Shown here in pieces: positions 3,621 to 62,300 of a stretch of DNA of 64,000 bases. The DNA lies in NCBI GenBank assembly GCA_030390025.1, contig CM059432.1:70124001-70188000 (forward strand), read 5' to 3'. The translations under genes and the position numbers were made by a program. Below the pieces are notes generated by a model, which searched no databases, was not told where the DNA came from, and saw nothing but the letters and a program-made list of their open reading frames with translations. The stretch is from Squalus acanthias. Lineage: Eukaryota. Positions within the stretch are counted from its first letter, which is position 1. Every line of letters starts with the position of its first letter.

Positions 3621-3818
3621 GCCTCTAGTTATTAGATTAATTAACATTTTTAGTATACCCCTCTGCCCTTAGTTAAAAATTAAAAGACAACAGACAAAAA
3701 ACAGCAGTGATACTCACTGGCCCCGAATCTGAATAGCAAAGAAAAACTATGTGACCTTTACCAACCAATCAGTTGCCAGCTATCCTGTGACGTCACTCCT
3801 TGTGTTTTTTTTTCCCTC

Positions 3819-4281
3819 GCTGCTGTTGCTGCCGGTGAGTCTGGGCTTCGCTCTCTCTCCCGTTCCTTATACTCCTCGCTGTTCTCGCTCAGGCTCCACC
3901 CAGGGCCACTCTCGCTGCTGTTGCTGCCGGTGAGTCTGGGCCTTCGCTCTCTCTCCCGCTCCTTATACTCCTCGCTCAGGCTCCACCCAGGGCCGCTCTC
4001 GCTGCTGTTGCTGCCGGTGAGTCTGGGCCTTCGCTCTCTCTCCCGCTCCTTATACTCCTCGCTCAGGCTCCACCCAGGGCCGCTCTCGCTGCTGTTGCTG
4101 CCGGTGAGTCTGGGCCTTGCTCTCTCTCCCGCTCCTTATACTCCTCGCTCAGGCTCCACCCAGGGCCGCTCTCGCTGCTGTTGCTGCCGGTGAGTCTGGG
4201 CCTTGCTCTCTCTCCCGCTCCTTATACTCCTCGCTCAGGCTCCACCCAGGGCCGCTCTTGCTGCTGCCACTGCCGGTGAGC
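3819..4281. repeat. 87-bp tandem array (~5.3 units) at the CR1 5' end
   Basis: GCTGCTGTTGCTGCCGGTGAGTCTGGG... recurs at 4001 and 4088; the track shows a matching 29-aa repeat in ORF 3921-4193. Confidence 0.95.
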
Positions 4282-4624
4282 ATATTAAAGTAGTCTCTGC
4301 ATTCCCTTATATATTTAAGTGTTATAAAAAGAGATATCTTTACACCGACTGTTATCTCTCAGTCACCCAATTGCTGGCTTGAGGTAACACTGATATCTGG
4401 TGCAGTGAGATCATGGATGAGGAATACTTCCCATAATCCACTGTCCTCACTCATGATGTCACTGCAAGAGTTTGTGCAGGAAATGTCTGTTCCAAGACTG
4501 CCTGTAGTCAAGTATAAAATGTGGTAACTTAAAGTGACTGAGACACACTGTGAAGTGTGCAAAGATCTCACTTATAATGTTTAAAGTTATGAAGCAGTTT
4601 TTTTTTGTAAGTTTGCATTTGTAA

Positions 4625-5780: not shown

Positions 5781-6492
5781 AGGTAGTGTTTTCCTGTAAT
5801 TGTTCTAGATGACAGAAATGCCATGTCAGATTGTGAACGTGTCATAAACTGCCATAAAGCAATGCTGCAAGTTATTTAATTTTACTATGCAGAGCCTAAT
5901 CACTTTCAAATTGTTCTTCGTTTTCCAGCCACTGCCTTTATGTTGGTTGCATTCACAATTTTATTTTGTTTTAACATTTTGCTCGCAAGCCGTTGCCTGC
6001 ACATTGTCTCCTTGACTGGCAGCAGTGTTTCTGTAAGGTGGTCTGTACTGGATCCATCTATATGTGCCATGTAGAATCTTGGCAGCAGAGCCTTACAAGG
6101 CGGTTACATTATTATACAACAATTGTGCATGCCACATGCATCATGCATTAAGTAGGATATCAAATACAAAACATTTGCAAAAATATATTTAGCTTGATCA
6201 AATCTATCAAGAAACTTTAAAATATCAGAAGCGTCTGGTAGTAAAGTGCGGCATTGAGTCAATGACTCCCAGTTGCCTTTTCAGCTTCAGTACCAGTAAC
6301 ATTTTATTACAGTTGTATCCTCCCTTCCTAGTGGGAAGTCAGTTTTAGACTGTTCATCTCATGAACAGTGCAAAAGTACTGCCCACTCGGAGGACAGCAT
6401 ATTAGTCTAATAAAATGTTATTATCACTCAGCACTGACGTTTGCAAGTGCTGGGCTCAGTGTCCCAGACTCCACATCATTGTCGAGTACATT

Positions 6493-7251
6493 GGCCTGTA
6501 TTTTCCGATTGCAGGCCTCCCGCGGGCGGAGGCCTGCGAACTGGAAAAATCTGCGCCCTTACCTGAGGGCTCCCGGGACGGCACACGCTTCCGATGCTGA
6601 GCCTCACCAAACTGCAAGTGCGCAGGGCCCACGTATCCCAGAGGCGCATGTAGTTCGCAGCGTCCCTGGGATCACGTGGGCCATGGGGAGCCAATCACAG
6701 AAGGGAATCTCCCTTCATATATTTGACAGGAAGACCTGTCAAATATATGAATGGAGATCAATGAAAAAACATAGTAAAACTTTAAATAAATTATTTTTAA
6801 AAATCACTTTTTTAAAATGACTTGAAATTACAATAAATTAAGTATTTTAAACAAAAATTTAATTTTTTGAAAAAATAATTAAAGTATTTTACGGGGCTAA
6901 AAATAAACTTACCTTTTTTAAAGTATTTTTAAATGATAAATCAGTGAAAACATTTTTTTTTTTACTTTTTTCTACTCTTATCCTGGTAAAAGCAGGCCTT
7001 ACGCCTGCTTTTACCAGGCGTAAGAATTGTAAGGGTTTTCTGCGGGCGGAGGGGTCTCCAAAAAGCGGAACTATCCGCCCGCAGAGGCCCTTCTCCAGGG
7101 CAGCCGGAGGATCTGTCAAGAGAATTCTTGACAGATCGGAAATGCCGGTTTTCAGCGCATGCGCTGTGCATGTCTGAAACCAGCATTTCCGATGTCTCTA
7201 CGGGTGGGTGCACAGCGCGTACCCACCCGTAGGGATCGGAATATCCGGCCC
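6493..7251. mobile_element. Non-autonomous hairpin-rich TIR element (Harbinger-type ends), copy 1
   Basis: Imperfect 17-bp TIRs GGCCTGTATTTTCCGAT / ATCGGAATATCCGGCCC; flanks ATT/AAT; several perfect internal hairpins; homologous to 59688-60430. Confidence 0.8.
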
Positions 7252-8069
7252 AATAGCTTTCCAAACATTAGGGTAGGACGCATCTTGTGGTCACAAGCAT
7301 CTTGATGTGAACCAAATGTTAGAAAGTTAAATAATAACACATCAAAGGTAGGTTTAATTTTAGATTTTTCGTTTCCTTAGTGGTTCAGTTGATAATTGTA
7401 CCTCCTGACATGGAATTGAGCCATGCATATTAGGAAAATCATAACTTTAATTTCTGCTCTTGCGGACCTTAGCCAGAGAGGCTGTAGGAGCATTACAATG
7501 GATCTTATTGCCCTAGGCGAGAGAGAGGAAAACTAGTCAGAGTTATCACTTTTGAATGCTGCTCGTAAACCCTGCTGGAAATGACTCATGTGGATGTTGG
7601 ATAAGGATGGGATTGTGCTCCCCATGGTAAAATATCCTGTCAGTTCCTCATTGTCTGGGCTCACAGAGATGGCCAATTGGCCGAGTTACTGGAGAGTGGT
7701 GGGCCCATGAAACTTTACAGCTGGCAAGAGTCAATGGGTGGAACTGTCAATTTCAGTGGGAGTTTAAAGCGAGCGGTAGCAGATCGACCACCTGATTTTC
7801 CTTTCCATTGATCTATAACAGACAGCGAATCTGCTATCGCCCGTTTTATGCCCTCGCCGAAGTTGAAAGCTTCGTTCAACATCTTCAAATGAAAAAGAAA
7901 ATTGGGGTTAAAGATTAATTTTGTTTTCATCATAATTCAGAAAGGAAGGCCCACAAATAGGATTTTTTGAGAGCTTTTCCTGGTGTATTCCCTTAGACCC
8001 ATCCACAACAGAGCATTCTCTGCTACAACAGTTTAACATTTCCATTTATTGCACCACTCAGCCTGGAGG

Positions 8070-47920: not shown

Positions 47921-48132
47921 AATAGATAGAGAAAATGCTGGAAATACTCAGCAGGTCAGGCTGCATCTGTGGAGATAGAAACAGAGTTAACGTTTCAGGT
48001 CGATGACCCTTCGTCCGACCTGAAACGTTAACTCTGTTTCTCTCTCCACAGATGCTGCTTGAATCGCTGAGTATTTCCAGCATTTTCTCTTTTTATTTCA
48101 GATTTCCAGCATCTGCAGTATTTTGCTTTCGT
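47921..48132. mobile_element. Palindromic retro-insertion (Penelope-like) with a 14-bp TSD
   Basis: ~75-bp inverted arms at 47928-48002 and 48016-48090; TSD AACCAATCTTTAAT at 47907-47920 and 48133-48146. Confidence 0.8.
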
Positions 48133-51017: not shown

Positions 51018-51346
51018 CAGGAAACTCTTTGGTACTCCGGCACCTACGGGACCGGGATGGTGCCGGTTTATTAAAAATTCCGGATAACGGAGATGTATAC
51101 CTACCAAGGTACGAGAGCCCCGTTACACAGCCACTTGTGCAGGAGTCCCGGTTACACGGCCACAGATCCAGGAGTCCCGGTTACACGGCCACTTGTGCAG
51201 GAGTCCCGGTTACACGGCCACAGGTGCAGGGACCCCGGTTACACGGCCACTAATATACAGTAAAACTTACCTGAACCTACTCCTGAATTTTGCCGGTTAA
51301 TAGAGAATTCCGGATATTTAGGTGCCGTTTAAATGAGAGTTTCCTG
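51018..51346. mobile_element. Tigger MITE of the 9459-11883 family, containing five 29-bp repeats
   Basis: Same TIRs and subterminal regions; TA TSD at 51016-17 and 51347-48; GTTACAC recurs at 51122, 51151, 51180, 51209 and 51238. Confidence 0.93.
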
Positions 51347-52762: not shown

Positions 52763-52843
52763 AAAGAGAAACTACAAAATCAGATTGAATAATAAAAACC
52801 CATCCAATGTATTTCTTCAAATTTTCTCAATTCTACATATAAA

Positions 52844-53736
52844 GGGGGAAAAATTCAGTCGCGCCCCATTTGGGGCGCAAATATCGTCCGGGCGCAAAAA
52901 TTAGCGCCTGGCGCTAATTATCGCCACCGACTGCAAACTTGACTTTTATCGCCCCTGGAGGTGATTGCAGCGCTAAATCAGGCGCTTCACACCTGTCTTA
53001 AGGCGCAAAGGCCGAGGAGCGAGGCGCTACCTCAGAGCGCTGGCGAAACTCATGTAATGTCAGTCAGCAATGGAATACACACACAATGGCACGGGCCAGT
53101 TCTTAAAGGGGATGGTTAATCTTGCTTTCCATCCACATCCTGCTCATTGCAGCCTTGAATCTCGGCCTGGAGAGACCTGCACATCAAATGTGCTGGAAAG
53201 AACAATGGAGAGTACCAGGCAAAGAGCTCAGAGTGCAGCCCCCACAGTCTCTACTAAATCGATACAAGGAATGGCAAATCAAAATGAACCTGCAAAGTGC
53301 TGCTCAGTACCCAAAACTCCTTCACACAACGTTGAATCTCTCCAGAAGTCTCTCCCTCTCTCTCTCAGAATGCGTAGTTCAAAAATGGCACCAACAATAA
53401 AAGGCAGGAAGCGGTCACCTTTAAATAGCGCTCCCCCTTTCCCTTCATGACTGCAGAACGCTCCCCTCAACCTGTCGTTGCTAGCGTCAGGCGGTAAGGC
53501 AGGGGGCGCCACTCAATATCCGCTCCAGGGCGATACTGGGGCGTTGCGCACTCGAGTGACATCATGATCTGCCGGCGCAGGAGATCGCGGCGATAAAGTT
53601 TAGCGCCGCCGCAAAATGTCTAGTTAAGTTCGCGAGCGGCGCAAACATCGCTGCGCCCGGGCGCTAGCTGCTTTGCGCCCCATTAGCGCCCTCTTAAGGC
53701 GCTAACGGGAGGCGCAACCAACTGAATTTTTCCCCC
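52844..53736. mobile_element. Harbinger internal-deletion derivative (893 bp) of the adjacent element's family, in inverted orientation
   Basis: TIRs GGGGGAAAAATTCAG / CTGAATTTTTCCCCC; AAA TSD; its halves match the reverse complement of both ends of 53748-57839. Confidence 0.92.
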
Positions 53737-54245
53737 AAAGAGTTTAAGGGGGAAAAATTCGGTTGGTTTGCGCCTCCCTAAGAGGGCGCTAATGGGCGCA
53801 AAGCAACTAGCGCCCGGGCGCGGCGATGTTTGCACCGCTCGCGAAATTGACAAGAGTTTTTGCGGTGGTGCAAAAGTTTACCACCCCGATCTCCTGCGCC
53901 CGCAGATCGTGACGTCAGTCGAGCGTACAACGCCCTGGTAGCGCCCCGGACCAGATATTGAGTGGCGCCCCCTCCTTTCCGCCTGGTGCAAGCAACGCCA
54001 GGGAGACTGGAACGTTTCCCAGTCGGTGAGGGGCTGGGGCGGCGCTATGTAAAGGCGGCCTCTTCCTGGCTTTTTCTGTGGTAGACATTTTTGCAGCACT
54101 CATTCTGACAGAGAGAGAGATTCTGAGAAAGAGATAGAGAGACTTCTGCATAGAGTCAACGCTGTGTGAAGTAGTTTTGGCTACTGAGCATCACTTTGCA
54201 GGTACTTTTGGATTTGACCTTCATTACTTCGATTGCCAAGAGACT

Positions 54246-55391
54246 TTGGGGGCTGTACTGATTCGGGGCGTTGTCCTGCGCCTGCAGAATCAGAGGCAAC
54301 AGAGACGCAGAGAGAGAGTGGCAAACATAGCCAGAGGGAGGAGGGCCAACAGGATTCTGCACAGGAAGCCTTACCCTCCCAGGGTATTCCGGGAATAATT
54401 CTCCTACATTAATTTGTCTGAGGAGCAGTGTTTGCGCAGGCTGCGCTTCAGCAAGGAGGTAGTCACTGAGCTCTGCCACCTGCTGCAGCCAGATCTGCAG
54501 CCTCAACTGAGGACCAGGCCGTCTCTGTCGGTGGCAGTGAAGGTCACAGTGGCTCTGAACTTTTATGCCACCAGCTCCTTTCAAGCAGCTACTGGGGACA
54601 TCACCAATATCTCCCAGTTCGCGGTCCATTGCTGTATCCGTCAGGTCACAAATGCCCTCTATAAAAGGAGACGCCAGTACATCTCTTTCCCGATGACCGA
54701 GGCCAAACAGCATGAACGCACATTGGGCTTTGCGAGGATAGCGGAGTTCCCCATGGTGCAGGGCGCCATTGACTCCACGCATGTGGCATTGCGGGCACCG
54801 CATGAGAATGCAGAGGTTTTCCGAAACCGCAAGGGGTTCCACTTCTTAAACGTCCAGTTGGTCTGTGACCACAGACAGCTGATACTCGCAGTCAATGCCC
54901 GCTATCCTGGCAGCAGCCATGATGCTTTCATCCTGCGCCAGACTGCTGTGCCAGAACTTTTCCAGGCACCGCATCAGCCAAGTGGTTGGCTCCTCGGGGA
55001 CAAGGGTTATCCACTGTGCACCTGGCTGATGACACCGCTCCATAACCCCAACACCCCTGCTGAGCTGCGGTACAATGAGAGCCATCTTGCCACCAGGAAC
55101 ATCATTGAGTAGACGATCGGCATGCTCAAGCAACGGTTCCGCTATCTGGACCACTCAGGAGGAGCCCTGCAGTACTCGCCTGAGCGAGTCTCCCTCTTCA
55201 TAGTTGTGTGCTGCATTTTTCATAACCTGGCAATCCTCAGGACCCAGCCAATGCCACCAGGCCTTGGAGCACCACTGGAGGAGGAGGAAGAGGAGGAGGA
55301 TGATCAGCAGCAGCACCAAGGCGGGAGGGAGGCCCACGATGTTGAAACTGCAAGGGCTGTCCGTCAACGACTGATAACAAGCGGCTTCTAG
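54246..55391 (+). pseudogene. Harbinger DDE transposase, single frame with two nonsense codons
   Basis: ORFs 54177, 54414 and 55122 share one frame; GAIDSTH, NRKG, YPGSSHD, GDKGY, NIIE. Stops at 54396-98 and 55110-12; the presumed start reads TTG. Confidence 0.95.
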
Positions 55392-55507
55392 GCCCCTACA
55401 GAGGAAATGGCTTCTGGGAGGCCCACAATGTTGAAACTGCAAGGTCCGTCCGTCAACGACTGATAACAATCCGCTTCTAGGCCCCTACAGAGGAAATGGC
55501 TTCTGGC
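55327..55507. repeat. 89-bp tandem duplication spanning the transposase stop codon
   Basis: GGCCCAC..GTTGAAACTGCAAGG..GGAAATGGCTTCTGG occurs at 55331 and 55420. Confidence 0.9.
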
Positions 55508-55756
55508 ATGGAGAAAAACATGAATGAAAGCAACCCGCAACCCCAAAGGCGGCCAAGGCAGCAATGATTCCAAAGGCCAAACCTGTACATTTTGAATACA
55601 AAACCTTTTTTATTTTACAAACTCTGTGTGTGTCATTTCTTCATGACAAACTAATAGAAACAAACACAAAAAATCATTAATGAACATAACTGGTTCTCAC
55701 AACCTGGAGATAATGTCCAAAACACTAAACAAAAGTTTGAACACGAACCTCGGCCT

Positions 55757-57486
55757 TTAATAAAAAAATTCCCAACATTTCGTCACACCTCCTACTTTTT
55801 GCACTTCGAGGGTGATCTTCCTCTTGCGCACTTCCCCCCTTCCCACCCTACTGCTCCTCCGTAATGGGGCCCCAGTGGATGCAGCAAGGCTGGTGGAAGG
55901 CTGCTGATTGTCAGAACCTGAGACTACAGATGCCCTTGAAGGACGGCCTCGACCAGCTCTGGGCCTGGAGGGCCCGGCTGCAGACTGCACCAACTCTGCA
56001 TGGGCAGGCAGCAGTCTGGGCTACAGGCAGGTGGCAAGTGCAATGGGGAAGTGACAGTGGTGGGGCAGCAGCTCAGCATCCGGAGCAATCTGCTGGAGCA
56101 CAGATTGCTGGCCTGCTGCGGCACGTGAGAGCCCCAGGGGAAATGTGTCCAAACCAGCAACAATGGCAGCAGTCAGTGCTTGCGTGGCCTCAATCTGAGT
56201 CTGCATGAAACCAGTCTGAGATTGGATCACGGCAGCCAGTGACTGAATTGCAGCACTAAGCATTTGCGTGGCGTCTGCCTGTGCTACAGCATAGTGCTCC
56301 ACACTCCTTGCCAGTGCATCAATACTTTCGGGCACCCTTCCCACTGCACCCATGAGCTGAGTGTGCATGTCCACCGCCTGGGTGTTCATTTCAGCGATAA
56401 GCGACTCCTCCTCTGCGTTCAGTGCAGCAGGACTCACTGGCCTACTCTCCCTCCGGGGAGAAGGCCCCCGAGCTTCCCTAGCCACATCGCGTTGCTGCAG
56501 CCCGCTGGATCCCGGAGCTTCACCCTCATCAGACCCTTCCCCCCTGCTCCCCTCCAGGGAAGACGTGTTCCCAGTGTGGGCATAGGCTTCCTCGGAAGAG
56601 GGTGGCACTGATGCTCCAGCTTCCTCTTCCTCCTCGCCTGCGACTTCGCTCCCACTGGCAGCTTGAGGGCCCGTCTCCTCAGCTGGTGAATCACCATCTG
56701 AAAGCAGGGAGGTACAAGAGTGGCTTTAGCGTGAGGACAGGGGGGCAGTAAGGGAGGAAGGAGTGCAGCAATTTAGTAAGTTGGATTGAAAGTGTCAAAG
56801 GCTGGTGTTGTGAGGGACAAGTGGAATGAGAGAGGAGAGAAAGCTGATGGCCTTACCATTGCTGTCCCGAACGGGGTCGACCTCTCCAGGGGCGACGGGA
56901 CCGATCACCCGGCTTGCCACAGTCCTGTGGACGCACGCCTCAAGATCGCTGAGGGGTTGCAGCTGAGGCTGCCCTCCACCCGTCTGTTGCTGCTGTCTCC
57001 TGTTATGAGATAGCTTGGCCTGCAAGAAAAAGGACGGCGTCTGAGTAAATATACAACCATGGTCTTGCCTGATGTGCCTCCCACAGTTGAATAGCTCTTA
57101 CTGTATGCAAGGTGTGGAATGTGTGTGTGTGTTTCATGAGAGGGCCATAGGTGTTGGATGAGTGTTGGGCATTGGGGTTTTAAGACCCTCTGGCAATAGA
57201 GTGAGGTTGAAATGGAGGGATGGAGAGGTATTGAAAAAAATCCACTCATCCTGACGACCCGAGTGAGGTCGTTGAACGTTTTGCGACATTGATTATGGGT
57301 CCTGGGCACCATGCTCCTGGAGGAGACGTGCTGAGCCACCTCCCTTCACACACTTCTGTAGTCGTGCGGCAAAGGCCTCCTGCCACTCTCAGGGTCGAGT
57401 ATAGATCTTCTGCGCTCCACCGCGCCAACCAGAGCCTCCAAGGCCCGCTCGCTGAAGCGCTGAGCTCATTCTCTCACCCTCTCCAT
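55757..57486 (-). pseudogene. Harbinger Myb/SANT gene, 3 exons (57486-57250, 57019-56857, 56697-~55760)
   Basis: AQRFSERALEALV..., RTHNQCRKTFNDLTR; exon 2 AKLSHN..QTGGG; exon 3 joins in frame with ORF 56021-56608. The exon 1 donor reads ATGAGT. Confidence 0.87.
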
Positions 57487-58458
57487 TGTCCTTGGCTGGA
57501 AAATGTAGTCACAGGTCTCTCCAGGCCGAGATTCAAGGCTCCAATGAGCAGGGTGTGGCTGGAGAGCAAGATCGACCCTCCCCTTTAAGAAATGGCCGGC
57601 GCCAGTGAGTCTGTGTTCCATCGCTAACTGACAGCACCTGCGCTGCGCCCGCGCTCTGAGTTAGCGCCTTGCTCCTCGGCCTTTGCGCCTTAAGACAGGT
57701 GTGCAGCGCCTGATTTAGCGCTCCAATCACATCCGGGGCGATAAAAGCCAAGTTTGCAGTCAGAGGTGATAATTAGAGCTAAACTTTGCATCCGGCCGAT
57801 AATTGCGCCCCAAACAGGGCGATACCGAATTTCTCCCCCTAAATTTCTGTATATATAAGAAACAGGTTTTTAAGGAAAAGCTTTAAATCACAGCACTGGA
57901 TTATCATGTCAGATGTCTCGGTTTAGCTCCTCCCTCTTTTCCTAGCCTATAAAGTACTTGGAGCCTATTAATATGTGTTGATGATGACACCTGTTAGTGC
58001 TCTCCTGCTGCAGAATTTGAACCTGAAGTCAATTGAGCACTGTTGTACTCCGAGGGGAGAATAGAGTAATTAACAAGCCATAGCTTCAGCCACAGACAAA
58101 AGGAATAACTTGCCCATTGATTAGGATTAAAGAAAACTGCAGGTTTTAATTTTCTTGCATCCAATTTTTTTAAAGTATTCAGTCTCAGGGGAAAATGTTG
58201 TATCTAACCAAGATTGGCAGAAATGAGAACTGCACACAAATGGACAAAATTTGTATTCAGGGCAGTGAAATCAGGATTGGTGCACATATGTCCAGGTTGT
58301 CTCGAGTAGGGTTTGAATCTGACTACGCATTAAGTACACAAAGCTGTGCTTCTTGCCACTACCTCACTGGTTCCCAAAAATAGAACTTGTTATAGCCTCA
58401 GCAAGACAGCTGACAGACTATCTTTTACACATGAGGCGACAAGTAAAGTAATGTAGAT

Positions 58459-59332: not shown

Positions 59333-62300
59333 GGGAACGGTAGCATAGTGGTTATGTTACTGGACCAGTAATCTAGAGGCCTGGAACAATAATCCAGTCG
59401 ACGTGAGTTCAAATCTCACCACGGCAGCTGTGGAATTTAAATTTGGTTAATTAAATAAATCTGGAATAAAAAGCTAGTATCAGTAATAGTGACCATGAAA
59501 CTGCCAGATTATCGTAAAAACCCATCTGGTTCACTAATGTCCTTTAGGGAAGGAAATCTGCCGTCCTTACCTGGTCTGGCCTATATGTGACTCCAGACCC
59601 ACAGCAATGTGGTTGATTCTTAACTGCCCTCTGAAATGGCCTAGCAAGCCACTCAGTTGTATAAAAATCGCTACAAGAAATAAGAATGGCCCAGAAATTG
59701 ATCTCGCTCTGTTCCCGCGGGGGTAAGCCTTCCCCGCGATGTCTCACCTCGCTTATGCTTTTTCTGATCCAGCTCGCACGAACTTGATGTTCCAGACATC
59801 AGCTGTGCTGGGCTTGCGTATCCCAGCGGCGCAGTTAATTCGTGCGAGCTGTGGGATCACGTGACTCAGTTAGAGCCAATGGCAGCACACCATCTTCCAT
59901 TCATAAGTCTCACAGCATGGCTGTGAGACTTATGAATCTTACACCCCCCCAAAATAACAGCTAAACCTCAATTAAATTTAAAAAAAAACCATCACATTAA
60001 TAAAATAAGTATAGTTAATTAAATTAACCATTTTAAATAAAAAATTAAATTTTTGAAAAAATTTAAAATCTTTTAAAAAGTTATAAAAATAAACTTACCT
60101 GTCTTTAAAGTCTATAAAAAAGATATACCTGTAAAAAAAAATTCAAAAAAATACTTAATTCACTACTTACCTTCTTAAAAGCGGGTCTTACTCCTCCTTT
60201 TTACATTTCCAAAATCTTCCGTACTTACCTGCGCGTCCAAAGCATGAAGTGCACAGCGTGCGCGCAGCCTGTAGCGCGCACGCGATGCACTCAGGCCCCG
60301 CCCCCTTTTCGGAAGAGCAATTGCCGGTTTTCAGCGCATGCGCAGGGCATGCAGAAAACCGGCAATTGGAGTGGGAATACGCGAGAGTATGCAGTGCGTA
60401 CTCTCGCGTCCCGGGATCAATTTTCGGCCCAATAAGAATAAAACTGGACGGACCACCCGGCATCGATCTCAGCACCGGCTTCAGACACGGCAACGGCACA
60501 CCTAGCCCAGTCGACCCTGCAAAGTCCTCCTCTGGGGACTTGTGCCAAAATTGGGAGAGCTGTCCCACAGACCAGTCAAGCAACAGTCTGACATAGTCAT
60601 ACTAACAGAATCATACCTTTCTGCCAATGTCTCAGACTCCTCCATCACCATCCCTGGGTTTGTCCTGTCCCACCGGCAGGACAGACCCACCAGGGGTGGT
60701 GGCACAGTGGTATACAGTCAGGAGGGAGTCGCCCTGGGAGTCCTCAACATTGACTCTGGACCCCATGAAGTCTCATGGCATCAGGTCAAGCATGGGCAAG
60801 GAAACCTCCTGCTGATTACCACCTACCTCCCTCCCTCAGCTGATGAATCTGTACTCCTCCATGTTGAACACCACTTTGAAGAAGCACTGAGGGTAGCAAG
60901 GGCACAGAATGGACTCTGGGTGGGGGCCTTCAATGTCCATCACCAAGAGTGGCTCAGCAACACCACTACTGACTGAGCTGGCCGAGTCCTGAAGGACATA
61001 GCTGCCAGACTGGGCATGCGGCAGGTGGTGAGAGAACCAACACAAGGGAAAAACGTACTTGACCTCATCTTCACCAATCTACCTGTCGCAGGTGCATCTG
61101 TCCATGACAGCATTGGTAGCAGTGATCACCGTACAGTCATTGTGGAGACAAAGTCCCGTCTTCACATTGAGGACACCCTCCATCGTGCTGTGTGGCACTA
61201 TCAATTACCGTCCCGTCAGTCTACTCTCAATCATCAGCAAAGTGATGAAAGGTGTTGTTGACAGTGCTATCAAGCAGAACTTACTCACCAATAACCTGCT
61301 CACTGATGCTCAGTTTGGGTTCCGCCAGGACCACTCAGCTGCAGGCCTCATTACAGCCTTGGTCCAAACATGGACAAAAGAGCTGAATTCCAGAGGTGAG
61401 GTGAGAGTTACTGCCTTCACATCAAAGCAGCATTTAACTGAGTGTGGCATCAAGGAGCCCTAGTAAAATTGAATGTAATGGGAATGAGGGGAAAAACACT
61501 CCACTGGCTGGGGTCATACCTAGCACAAAGGAAGGTAGTTCTGGTTGTTGGAGACCAGTCATCTCAGCCCCAGGACATCGCTGCAGGAGTTCCTCAGGAC
61601 AGTGCCTAGGTCCAACCATCTTCAGCTGCTTCATCAATGACCTTCCCTCCATCATAAGGTCAGAAGTGGGGATGTTCGCTGATGATTGCACAGTGTTCAG
61701 TTCCATTCGCAACTCCTCAGATAAGGAAGCAGTCCATGCCCGCATGCAGCAAGACCTGGACGACATTCAGGCTTGAGCTGATAAGTGGCAAGTAACATTC
61801 GCGCCACACAAGTGCCAAGCGATGACTATCTCCAACAAGAGAGCATCTAACCACTGCCCCTTGACATTCAACGGCATTACTATCGCTGAATTCCCCAACA
61901 TCAACATCCTGGGGGTCACCATTGACCAGAAATTTAACTGGACCAGCCACATAAATACTGTGGCTACAAGAGCAGGTCAGAGGCTCAGTATTCTGCGGTG
62001 AGTGTCTCACCTACTGACTCCCCAAAGTCTTTCCACCATCTACAAGGCACAAGTCAGGAGTGTGATAGAATACTCTCTGCTTGACTGGTTGAGTGCAGCT
62101 CCAACAACACTCAAGAAGCTCGACACCATCCAGGACAAAGCAGCCCACTTGATTGGCACCCCATCCACCACCTTAAACATTCACTCCCTCCACCACCAGC
62201 GTACCGTGGCTGCAGTGTGTACTATCTACAAGATGACCTGCAGCAACTCCCCAAGGCGTCTTCGACAGCACCTCCCAAACCCGTGACTTCTACCACCTAG

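Follow-up and report, generated by a model that had tools for sequence, protein, structure and literature searches.

Two copies of one element in the window

The window, by which we mean the whole analysed stretch of 64,000 nucleotides, contains two repeats of about 750 bp, which are copies of a gene-less Harbinger MITE present in tens of thousands of copies. Both were found where an earlier reading of the bare DNA (the sequence-only reading) had located them. That reading had left their homology to be verified; pairwise comparison gave 68% identity over 405 nt (E 9e-23), so they are homologous. In a genome search the relatives of copy 1 were 91–95% identical to it and those of copy 2 were 99–100% identical. 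Open reading frames starting with ATG reached at most 103 amino acids and were not common to both copies, and neither copy has coding capacity for a transposase. The features of both elements are as follows.

6490..6492, plus strand: left flanking triplet of copy 1, ATT, unlike the AAT on the right side
6493..7251, plus strand: copy 1, Harbinger MITE of the older subfamily g15, 4.1% from the g15 consensus
6493..6509, plus strand: left TIR of copy 1, with the TTCCGAT motif
6511..6537: left hairpin of copy 1 in its old register, lost in the copy 2 lineage
6626..6682: E-box hairpin of copy 1, whose right arm is the GGGATCACGTG E-box (6673-6678)
6691..6695, plus strand: CCAAT box of copy 1, invariant in the 13 consensuses
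6714..6751: central hairpin of copy 1, with 13–18 of 18 pairs in all 13 subfamilies
6760..6980: AT-rich core of copy 1, with ACTTACCT at 6907 (minus-strand donor-like or candidate protein-binding motif)
6982..7024: two overlapping, mutually exclusive stems of copy 1 (6982-7018 and 6998-7024), decayed in the copy 2 lineage
7039..7085: 12-bp stem, copy 1 lineage only
7110..7137: 12-bp hairpin, copy 1 lineage only
7135..7193: TGCCGG stem of copy 1, around GCGCATGCGC, also in autonomous partners
7198..7232: terminal hairpin of copy 1, also in autonomous partners
7235..7251, minus strand: right TIR of copy 1
7252..7254, plus strand: right flanking triplet of copy 1, AAT
59688..60430, plus strand: copy 2, same MITE family, youngest subfamily c2A, 0.4% from its consensus, flanked by AAT/AAT
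59688..59728, plus strand: left end of copy 2, 41 nt identical to the Myb-side end of the autonomous-type element L174
59716..59738: left hairpin of copy 2 in its new register, around GGTAAG
59770..59851: 13-bp inverted repeat of copy 2 (arms 59770-59782 and 59839-59851), built stepwise from 2–4 to 13 of 13 pairs
59858..59880, plus strand: E-box (59858) and CCAAT (59876) of copy 2
59899..59937: central hairpin of copy 2, right arm with three changes in 4 nt relative to the sister subfamily, all restoring pairs
60093..60231, minus strand: ACTTACC three times in the same orientation in copy 2 (60093, 60165 and 60223)
60256..60283: 10-bp hairpin, younger lineage
60318..60430: right end of copy 2, comprising the TGCCGG stem (60318-60368), the terminal hairpin (60379-60409) and the right TIR

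The AAATAAACTTACCT motif, the TGCCGG stem and a hairpin 23 nt past the start of CCAAT in both copies were recovered as previously described, and the stems at 6511-6537, 6714-6751, 6982-7018, 7110-7137, 7198-7232, 59716-59738, 59899-59937 and 60379-60409 were confirmed. The earlier inventory had missed those at 6626-6682, 7039-7085, 59770-59851 and 60256-60283. The distance of 18 nt from CACGTG to CCAAT holds for both copies (6673/6691 and 59858/59876) but older subfamilies have 17 nt there (4,195 matches). The left hairpins had been considered equivalent; they are different stems, the loop of copy 1 corresponding to the stem of copy 2. The 17-bp central stem of copy 1 is indeed present and perfect, but its perfection is a private change (1/29 close relatives examined), since the subfamily of copy 1 carries a C·A mismatch at that place. 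The TTCCGAT of the left TIR of copy 1 is repeated at 6589, 7135 (minus), 7187 and 7235 (minus), and these five occurrences include both TIRs and the TGCCGG stem.

Size, ends and target site of the family

The pattern GGGATCACGTG-N10-14-CCAAT gave 47,340 exact matches in the 3.7-Gb genome, against 2 for the reversed control. An independent anchor yielded 44,891 matches genome-wide, and the exact motif was carried at 23 of 30 such loci, the other seven being six point-mutated or deleted copies and one copy interrupted by another element. The E-box, CCAAT, GCGCATGC and CTTACCT were invariant across the 13 subfamily consensuses, most copies having been collected by the E-box/CCAAT motif. These invariant motifs would resemble USF, NF-Y and NRF1 sites.

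Ends and duplications were surveyed in 112 of 162 candidates, in which both ends were present with at most one mismatch; the other 50 were without both ends or a near match. The termini were GGCCC/GGGCC in 103 of these 112 full-length copies, and the short TIRs starting with GG are those of PHIS/Harbinger elements. The target was AY[AWT]RT with a duplication of 3 bp: identical flanking triplets were found in 74/112 copies, and paralogous empty sites overlapped by 3 bp. AAT or ATT accounted for 54 of the 74 identical triplets and TAA or TTA for none, so that the strict TWA target of PIF/Harbinger was not found among them. The left flanks had A at the first position in 94/112 and T at the third in 104/112, in agreement with the ANT duplication of the Pangu type, and the target is not that of NuwaI / NuwaII (CWG or C|TNA|G). 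A Mutator-like duplication of 9 bp, considered for copy 2, was rejected as it appeared in 1/112 and 3 bp is the rule.

Several additional observations concern the family as a whole. In the youngest subfamily, the polymorphic sites 96, 145, 149, 604, 624 and 703 (L305-L342) were combined in many different ways, a pattern indicative of frequent gene conversion among the copies. MITE copies often adjoin or nest in one another, and elements of a GGGGG-ended family insert into their AT-rich core (L083, L132, L172, L115 and L127). Deletions removing one arm or all of the central hairpin were present in L075, L089, L097, L102, L346 and L357, a possible sign of slippage promoted by the hairpin. Finally, the young subfamily was found in the sequencing runs X1-X17, under several organism labels and with word shares up to 0.80.

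Autonomous partners and shared ends

Partners were searched with the PF13359 profile, by which 150 of 63,885 candidates were scored, and 20 stretches of 10 kb were examined. Thirteen of them (L171-L183) carry a transposase of the family of the MITE and the other seven that of the unrelated GGGGG-ended family. Full-length partners measure 4.5–4.7 kb and contain convergent transposase and Myb/SANT genes (in L174, PF13359 with E 2e-43 and PF13873 with E 8e-14). The second gene encodes a Myb_DNA-bind_5 protein, while the second ORF of Pangu elements has no known motif. The partner transposase is 46–56% identical to that of a Harbinger family with a TWA target from the same genome. An autonomous partner with the same TIRs had been called for by the sequence-only reading, and its assignment of both repeats to Harbinger-type MITEs is borne out by these partners.

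The likeness between MITE and partners is confined to the ends, the interior being at background identity. At the Myb side, the 41 nt of copy 2 and L174 are identical; at the transposase side about 120 nt are 80–92% identical between MITE and partners, and 85–92% between copy 2 and most sampled partners. End identity is paired by subfamily (c2 with L174/L180, g3 with L177 and g1 with L175), and no partner matching the subfamily of copy 1 was detected among the 13 examined. The TGCCGG stem and the terminal hairpin of the MITE also occur in the partners, and these terminal stems change along with them. Ends of the partner type occur in individual MITE copies (L070, L072, L215, L221 and L225), so the ends of the MITE would have been repeatedly refreshed from the partners by gene conversion. 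That the MITE arose by deletion from the sampled partners was rejected for its interior, given the background identity there, and the neighbouring Harbinger at 53748-57841 was discarded as a partner because of its different ends and a transposase identity of about 50%. To judge from the shared ends, the MITE is likely moved by the transposase-plus-Myb Harbingers of the same genome, and recent activity of this vertebrate Harbinger system is suggested by the young copies and the open frames of the transposase.

The last minus-strand ACTTACC of copy 2 (60223) aligns with a GTAAG upstream of the partner transposase, ahead of an AT-rich stretch, and for this reason it is likely a candidate relic 5'-UTR donor or binding site. 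The partners also have a stem of their own around TGACGTCA, about 110–160 nt from the Myb-side end (L171-L182), whose arms differ in a matched fashion between lineages. The last exon of the Myb gene of L174 contains a tandem repeat of 60 nt, one unit of which includes a stop codon, and the partners L178, L179, L181 and L182 have internal deletions and measure 2.9–3.8 kb.

Turnover and covariation of the stems

From 244 candidates, 151 full-length copies were aligned, of which 139 fell into 13 groups of at least two and 12 singletons were left out. The stems kept in all 13 subfamilies were the central one (13–18 of 18 pairs), the TGCCGG stem (13–15 of 15), the terminal hairpin (10–17 of 17) and the inner E-box stem (7–10 of 10). 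In the copy 2 lineage, four stems present in that of copy 1 are decayed and three others appear; the extra stems of copy 1 fall from 16/16 to 8–10/16, from 12/12 to 1–3/12 and from 8–11/11 to 1–3/11 pairs. Some stems remained half broken through nine subfamilies, with their neighbours kept or built up. The constant layout proposed previously thus applies to some stems, present in all 13 subfamilies, but is less fixed in others, which were lost or newly built. Folding was far beyond that of dinucleotide shuffles for copies 1 and 2 (z −15.9 and −14.6, 20 shuffles each) and, with both RNA and DNA parameters, for both strands of six consensuses (12 shuffles each).

Changes in pairs were counted with custom scripts along a similarity ladder of 12 steps, in stems with 60% or more of their pairs formed on both sides of the step. 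In these counts, which are approximate because the ladder is unrooted, copies recombine and the stems were defined on the same consensuses (ascertainment), pair-to-pair double changes across the 13 subfamily consensuses numbered 23 against 8.2 expected (P 2e-5), mismatch-to-pair events 54 against 53 in the opposite direction, and G·T events 27 against 26 A·C events, that is, with no strand bias. The stems therefore covary, the result sought by the covariation test which had been suggested for this family. In resident copies, stems accumulated mutations at 86 of 5,828 positions and the remaining sequence at 362 of 25,855 (1.48% vs 1.40%), indicating no protection after insertion.

How pairing is restored

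The two youngest subfamilies, c2B and c2A, differ in 11 columns, and three of these differences lie within 4 nt of the right arm of the central stem, each restoring a pair in c2A. Among the 100 matches listed of 1,784, 63 had the perfect form, 35 the three-mismatch form and 2 were one step from the latter, and there were no two-step intermediates. Besides, L303, a copy of subfamily c2C, has the opposite arm repaired, two adjacent changes making its central stem perfect; this opposite-arm repair rests on that one copy. The old right arm combined with a changed first base of the left arm had 4 matches genome-wide, corresponding to L303, one older subfamily and two single changes. The mutually exclusive overlapping stems were both kept.

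The block repair without two-step intermediates among the listed matches fits a copying of one arm onto the other. Template switching has been described as a process that makes and fixes stems (PMC8794818). Together with the repair of L303 in the opposite arm, these data support the arm-correcting mechanism that the sequence-only reading had offered as one of its options. The missing intermediates can also be explained by a small number of amplifying master copies. In addition, as the three-mismatch form amplified well (35/100 listed), perfect pairing is not required.

Repair in resident copies was rare. Private single repairs numbered 11 against 6.0 expected (P 0.04), a comparison confounded by subfamily mixing, and multi-base repair was estimated at one case per roughly 1,200 copies with that right arm, while resident copies decay at 1–2% per site. 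Given this rarity and the stems left half broken over nine subfamilies, arm copying would have to be joined by selection within the transposing lineage.

Origin of the covarying stems

Compensatory change in stems is usually taken as proof of a functional RNA, and selection on a folded RNA had indeed been contemplated for these elements. The covariation is real, the E-box, CCAAT, GCGCATGC and CTTACCT do not vary among the consensuses, most changes in the decaying outer E-box stem leave a plus-strand G·T, and contigs from three presumed-RNA runs cover the right 356 nt of copy 2 (a fourth run gave no contig), all of which would agree with a folded RNA, or a promoter with a first-exon transcript, whose structure is selected. 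Nevertheless, the excess of G·U expected on one strand was not found overall (27 G·T vs 26 A·C), whole stems were lost and replaced, and the Rfam search, run as had been advised, gave 13 matches in five loci that were all below the gathering score. At the three minus-strand donors, within the 356 nt covered by these contigs, neither a joint nor a loose end was seen among the ends listed, 47 further loose ends being unlisted. As there is neither G·T versus A·C bias nor an Rfam family nor protection after insertion, a structured RNA is unsupported, and we consider this explanation very improbable.

The explanation we favour, with a probability of about 0.6, is that of a non-coding Harbinger MITE whose stems covary through arm copying at the DNA level and selection for mobility. 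One arm would occasionally be copied onto the other in the DNA, template switching being the presumed route, and copies with symmetric, protein-bound arms would likely be the founders of the next burst. Since decay far outpaces repair in resident copies, selection would be necessary in the transposing lineage. Internal MITE sequence has been reported to affect mobility (PMC9921582). The stems could instead be inverted pairs of Myb or transposase sites in which each arm follows the preference of the protein and pairing is a by-product, with no arm copying. Such site pairs would account for the five TTCCGAT of copy 1, in both TIRs and the TGCCGG stem, for the terminal stems changing along with those of the partners and for the invariant CTTACCT, and the Myb protein of Harbinger3_DR is described as binding a 9-bp subterminal motif (PMC9710019). 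For the terminal stems, common to the partners and repeating the TIR motif, paired protein sites indeed seem likelier than selected symmetry. The central hairpin, by contrast, has no counterpart in the partners, the inner arms turn over almost completely, the last central repair made the right arm exactly complementary to a left arm that had newly appeared in the sister subfamily, and L303 was repaired in the opposite direction, so that as a general explanation paired sites appear rather unlikely. Quite improbable, in our opinion, is that the hairpins are neutral and due to template switching alone, at a raised rate in the transposing lineage and without selection of symmetry. Strand symmetry, block repair, the overlapping alternative stems and the similar mutation of stems and remaining sequence after insertion would all be expected under neutrality, but the rarity of multi-base repair against the decay of resident copies, and the persistence of half-broken stems beside neighbours kept or built up, argue against it.

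Half-repaired intermediates that were amplified, in a DNA transposon without strand bias, make the family a dated natural series for contrasting template switching with stepwise compensation.

Discordant flanking triplets

Non-identical flanking triplets were observed in 17/45 copies of the youngest subfamily and, in a separate sample from which one further copy without an end was left out, in 18/37, giving 35/82. In 22 of these 35 the pair was AAT and ATT, in both orders, and copy 1 itself is flanked by ATT/AAT. A neutral origin by mutation was rejected, as only 3.1/82 would be expected at 0.64% change. In the GGGGG family, a small control, triplets were concordant in 8/9.

Empty sites were sought for 112 elements, 39 of which had paralogous empty sites in the examined DNA, 13 of them being discordant. 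Contiguous empty sites with a clean overlap of 3 bp were obtained for 10 of the 13; the other three, with 1–2 matches showing other overlaps, were set aside. Ectopic recombination was rejected for these 10 insertions, whose flanks are contiguous in the empty paralogues. The majority triplet of the empty site equalled one flank in 9/10, the foreign triplet flanking the left end in 4 cases and the right end in 5. Paralogues of repeats do not always show the true target, as in about 6/26 concordant insertions the majority triplet was unlike both flanks. Perfecting of a terminal palindrome was not favoured either, because symmetry did not clearly reach further into the flanks and in 3 cases the foreign triplet was not the reverse complement of the other side.

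These mismatched insertion scars suggest that three bases of the old site likely travel with the element to its new position. Excision would leave one strand of the 3-bp duplication of the donor on the element, which would keep the strand complementary to the donor overhang, much as piggyBac retains its TTAA overhang. After ligation across a mismatch with the target, the donor bases, that is, the foreign triplet, would then be left on one side of the new insertion. A 2013 paper reportedly deals with mutations at noncanonical sites of piggyBac. In the staggered-cut model for mPing, 5' overhangs derived from the duplication are left at the donor (PMC4561436), and the discordant triplets would be the genomic footprint which that model predicts. 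For piggyBac, the element is described as keeping a TTAA overhang on excision (PMC7351741). A wider proposal, namely a vertebrate Harbinger with piggyBac-like excision combined with a MITE whose fold-back DNA is selected in transposition and kept by one-step arm copying, is made tentatively, the odds being somewhat against it. If it were true, tens of thousands of datable copies would record both donor-triplet carry-over and arm-to-arm copying.

Comparison with known systems

The mechanism of PIF/Harbinger transposition has been described as not thoroughly characterised (PMC9710019). According to their accounts, the closest non-autonomous PIF/Harbinger elements are mPing of rice (PMC2836001, PMC4561436, PMC9921582) and Harbinger3N_DR of zebrafish (PMC2836001, PMC9710019), with which this MITE shares short TIRs starting with GG, a 3-bp duplication with an extended target preference, a high copy number and a partner with separate DDE transposase and Myb/SANT genes. 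Unlike them, its target is AY[AWT]RT and not TWA, its interior is a lineage of its own and not a deletion product of the sampled partners, and it has a chain of covarying hairpins; non-identical triplets, found here in about 4/10 young insertions, were not met in the parts of those accounts consulted. Harbinger-N12A_XT of Xenopus tropicalis is likewise a Harbinger MITE of a vertebrate and has transcription-factor motifs as well as internal palindromic repeats but, in a comparison by description only, it differs in having 342 bp and 3,521 copies, and the portion of its account seen mentions neither covariation nor a partner nor a mechanism for the palindromes (PMC12676858). The ANT-type duplication of 3 bp and the TIRs starting with GG are shared with the Pangu group of the PHIS superfamily (PMC4482050), from which the Myb/SANT domain of the partner separates our element. 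Consequently, this MITE has PHIS features and, with its ANT-type target and Myb partner, fits fully none of the groups as outlined in PMC4482050.

As in the hairpin maintenance by template switching described in PMC8794818, multi-base compensatory changes perfect a stem in one event. The cases presented there are RNA genes with a bias to one strand, whereas here they concern a DNA transposon lineage without strand bias in which amplified half-repaired intermediates serve as the record. The excised piggyBac element resembles the one proposed here in that an overhang derived from the flank would leave donor bases at the new site, but it belongs to a different superfamily, with the 4-nt TTAA and a demonstrated hairpin intermediate (PMC7351741); on the Harbinger side the comparison has only the staggered-cut model (PMC4561436), and the carry-over proposed here is read from genomic sequence. 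Among the titles and abstract openings listed in literature searches, which covered few subscription papers and neither Repbase nor Dfam, nothing was found on covarying hairpins of Harbinger MITEs or on discordant Harbinger duplications. Further background is given in PMC2872659 and PMC9179366.

Other elements in the window

The Harbinger at 53748-57841 is GGGGG-ended and unrelated to the MITE, and contains a broken transposase and a convergent Myb-like gene between a TAA/TAA duplication. Relatives with open frames of 389–392 amino acids, about 81% identical, were found (L184-L190). At a distance of 13 nt and end to end with it lies an 894-bp MITE of the GGGGG family (52841-53734, start approximate), which is built from both ends of the larger element. 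The region 47921-48097 is an inverted repeat of 82 nt with a 13-nt spacer and 90% complementarity, by its symmetry possibly another palindromic MITE. Finally, tandem arrays were identified at 3816-4290 (units of 86–87 nt) and 51118-51262 (units of 29 nt).
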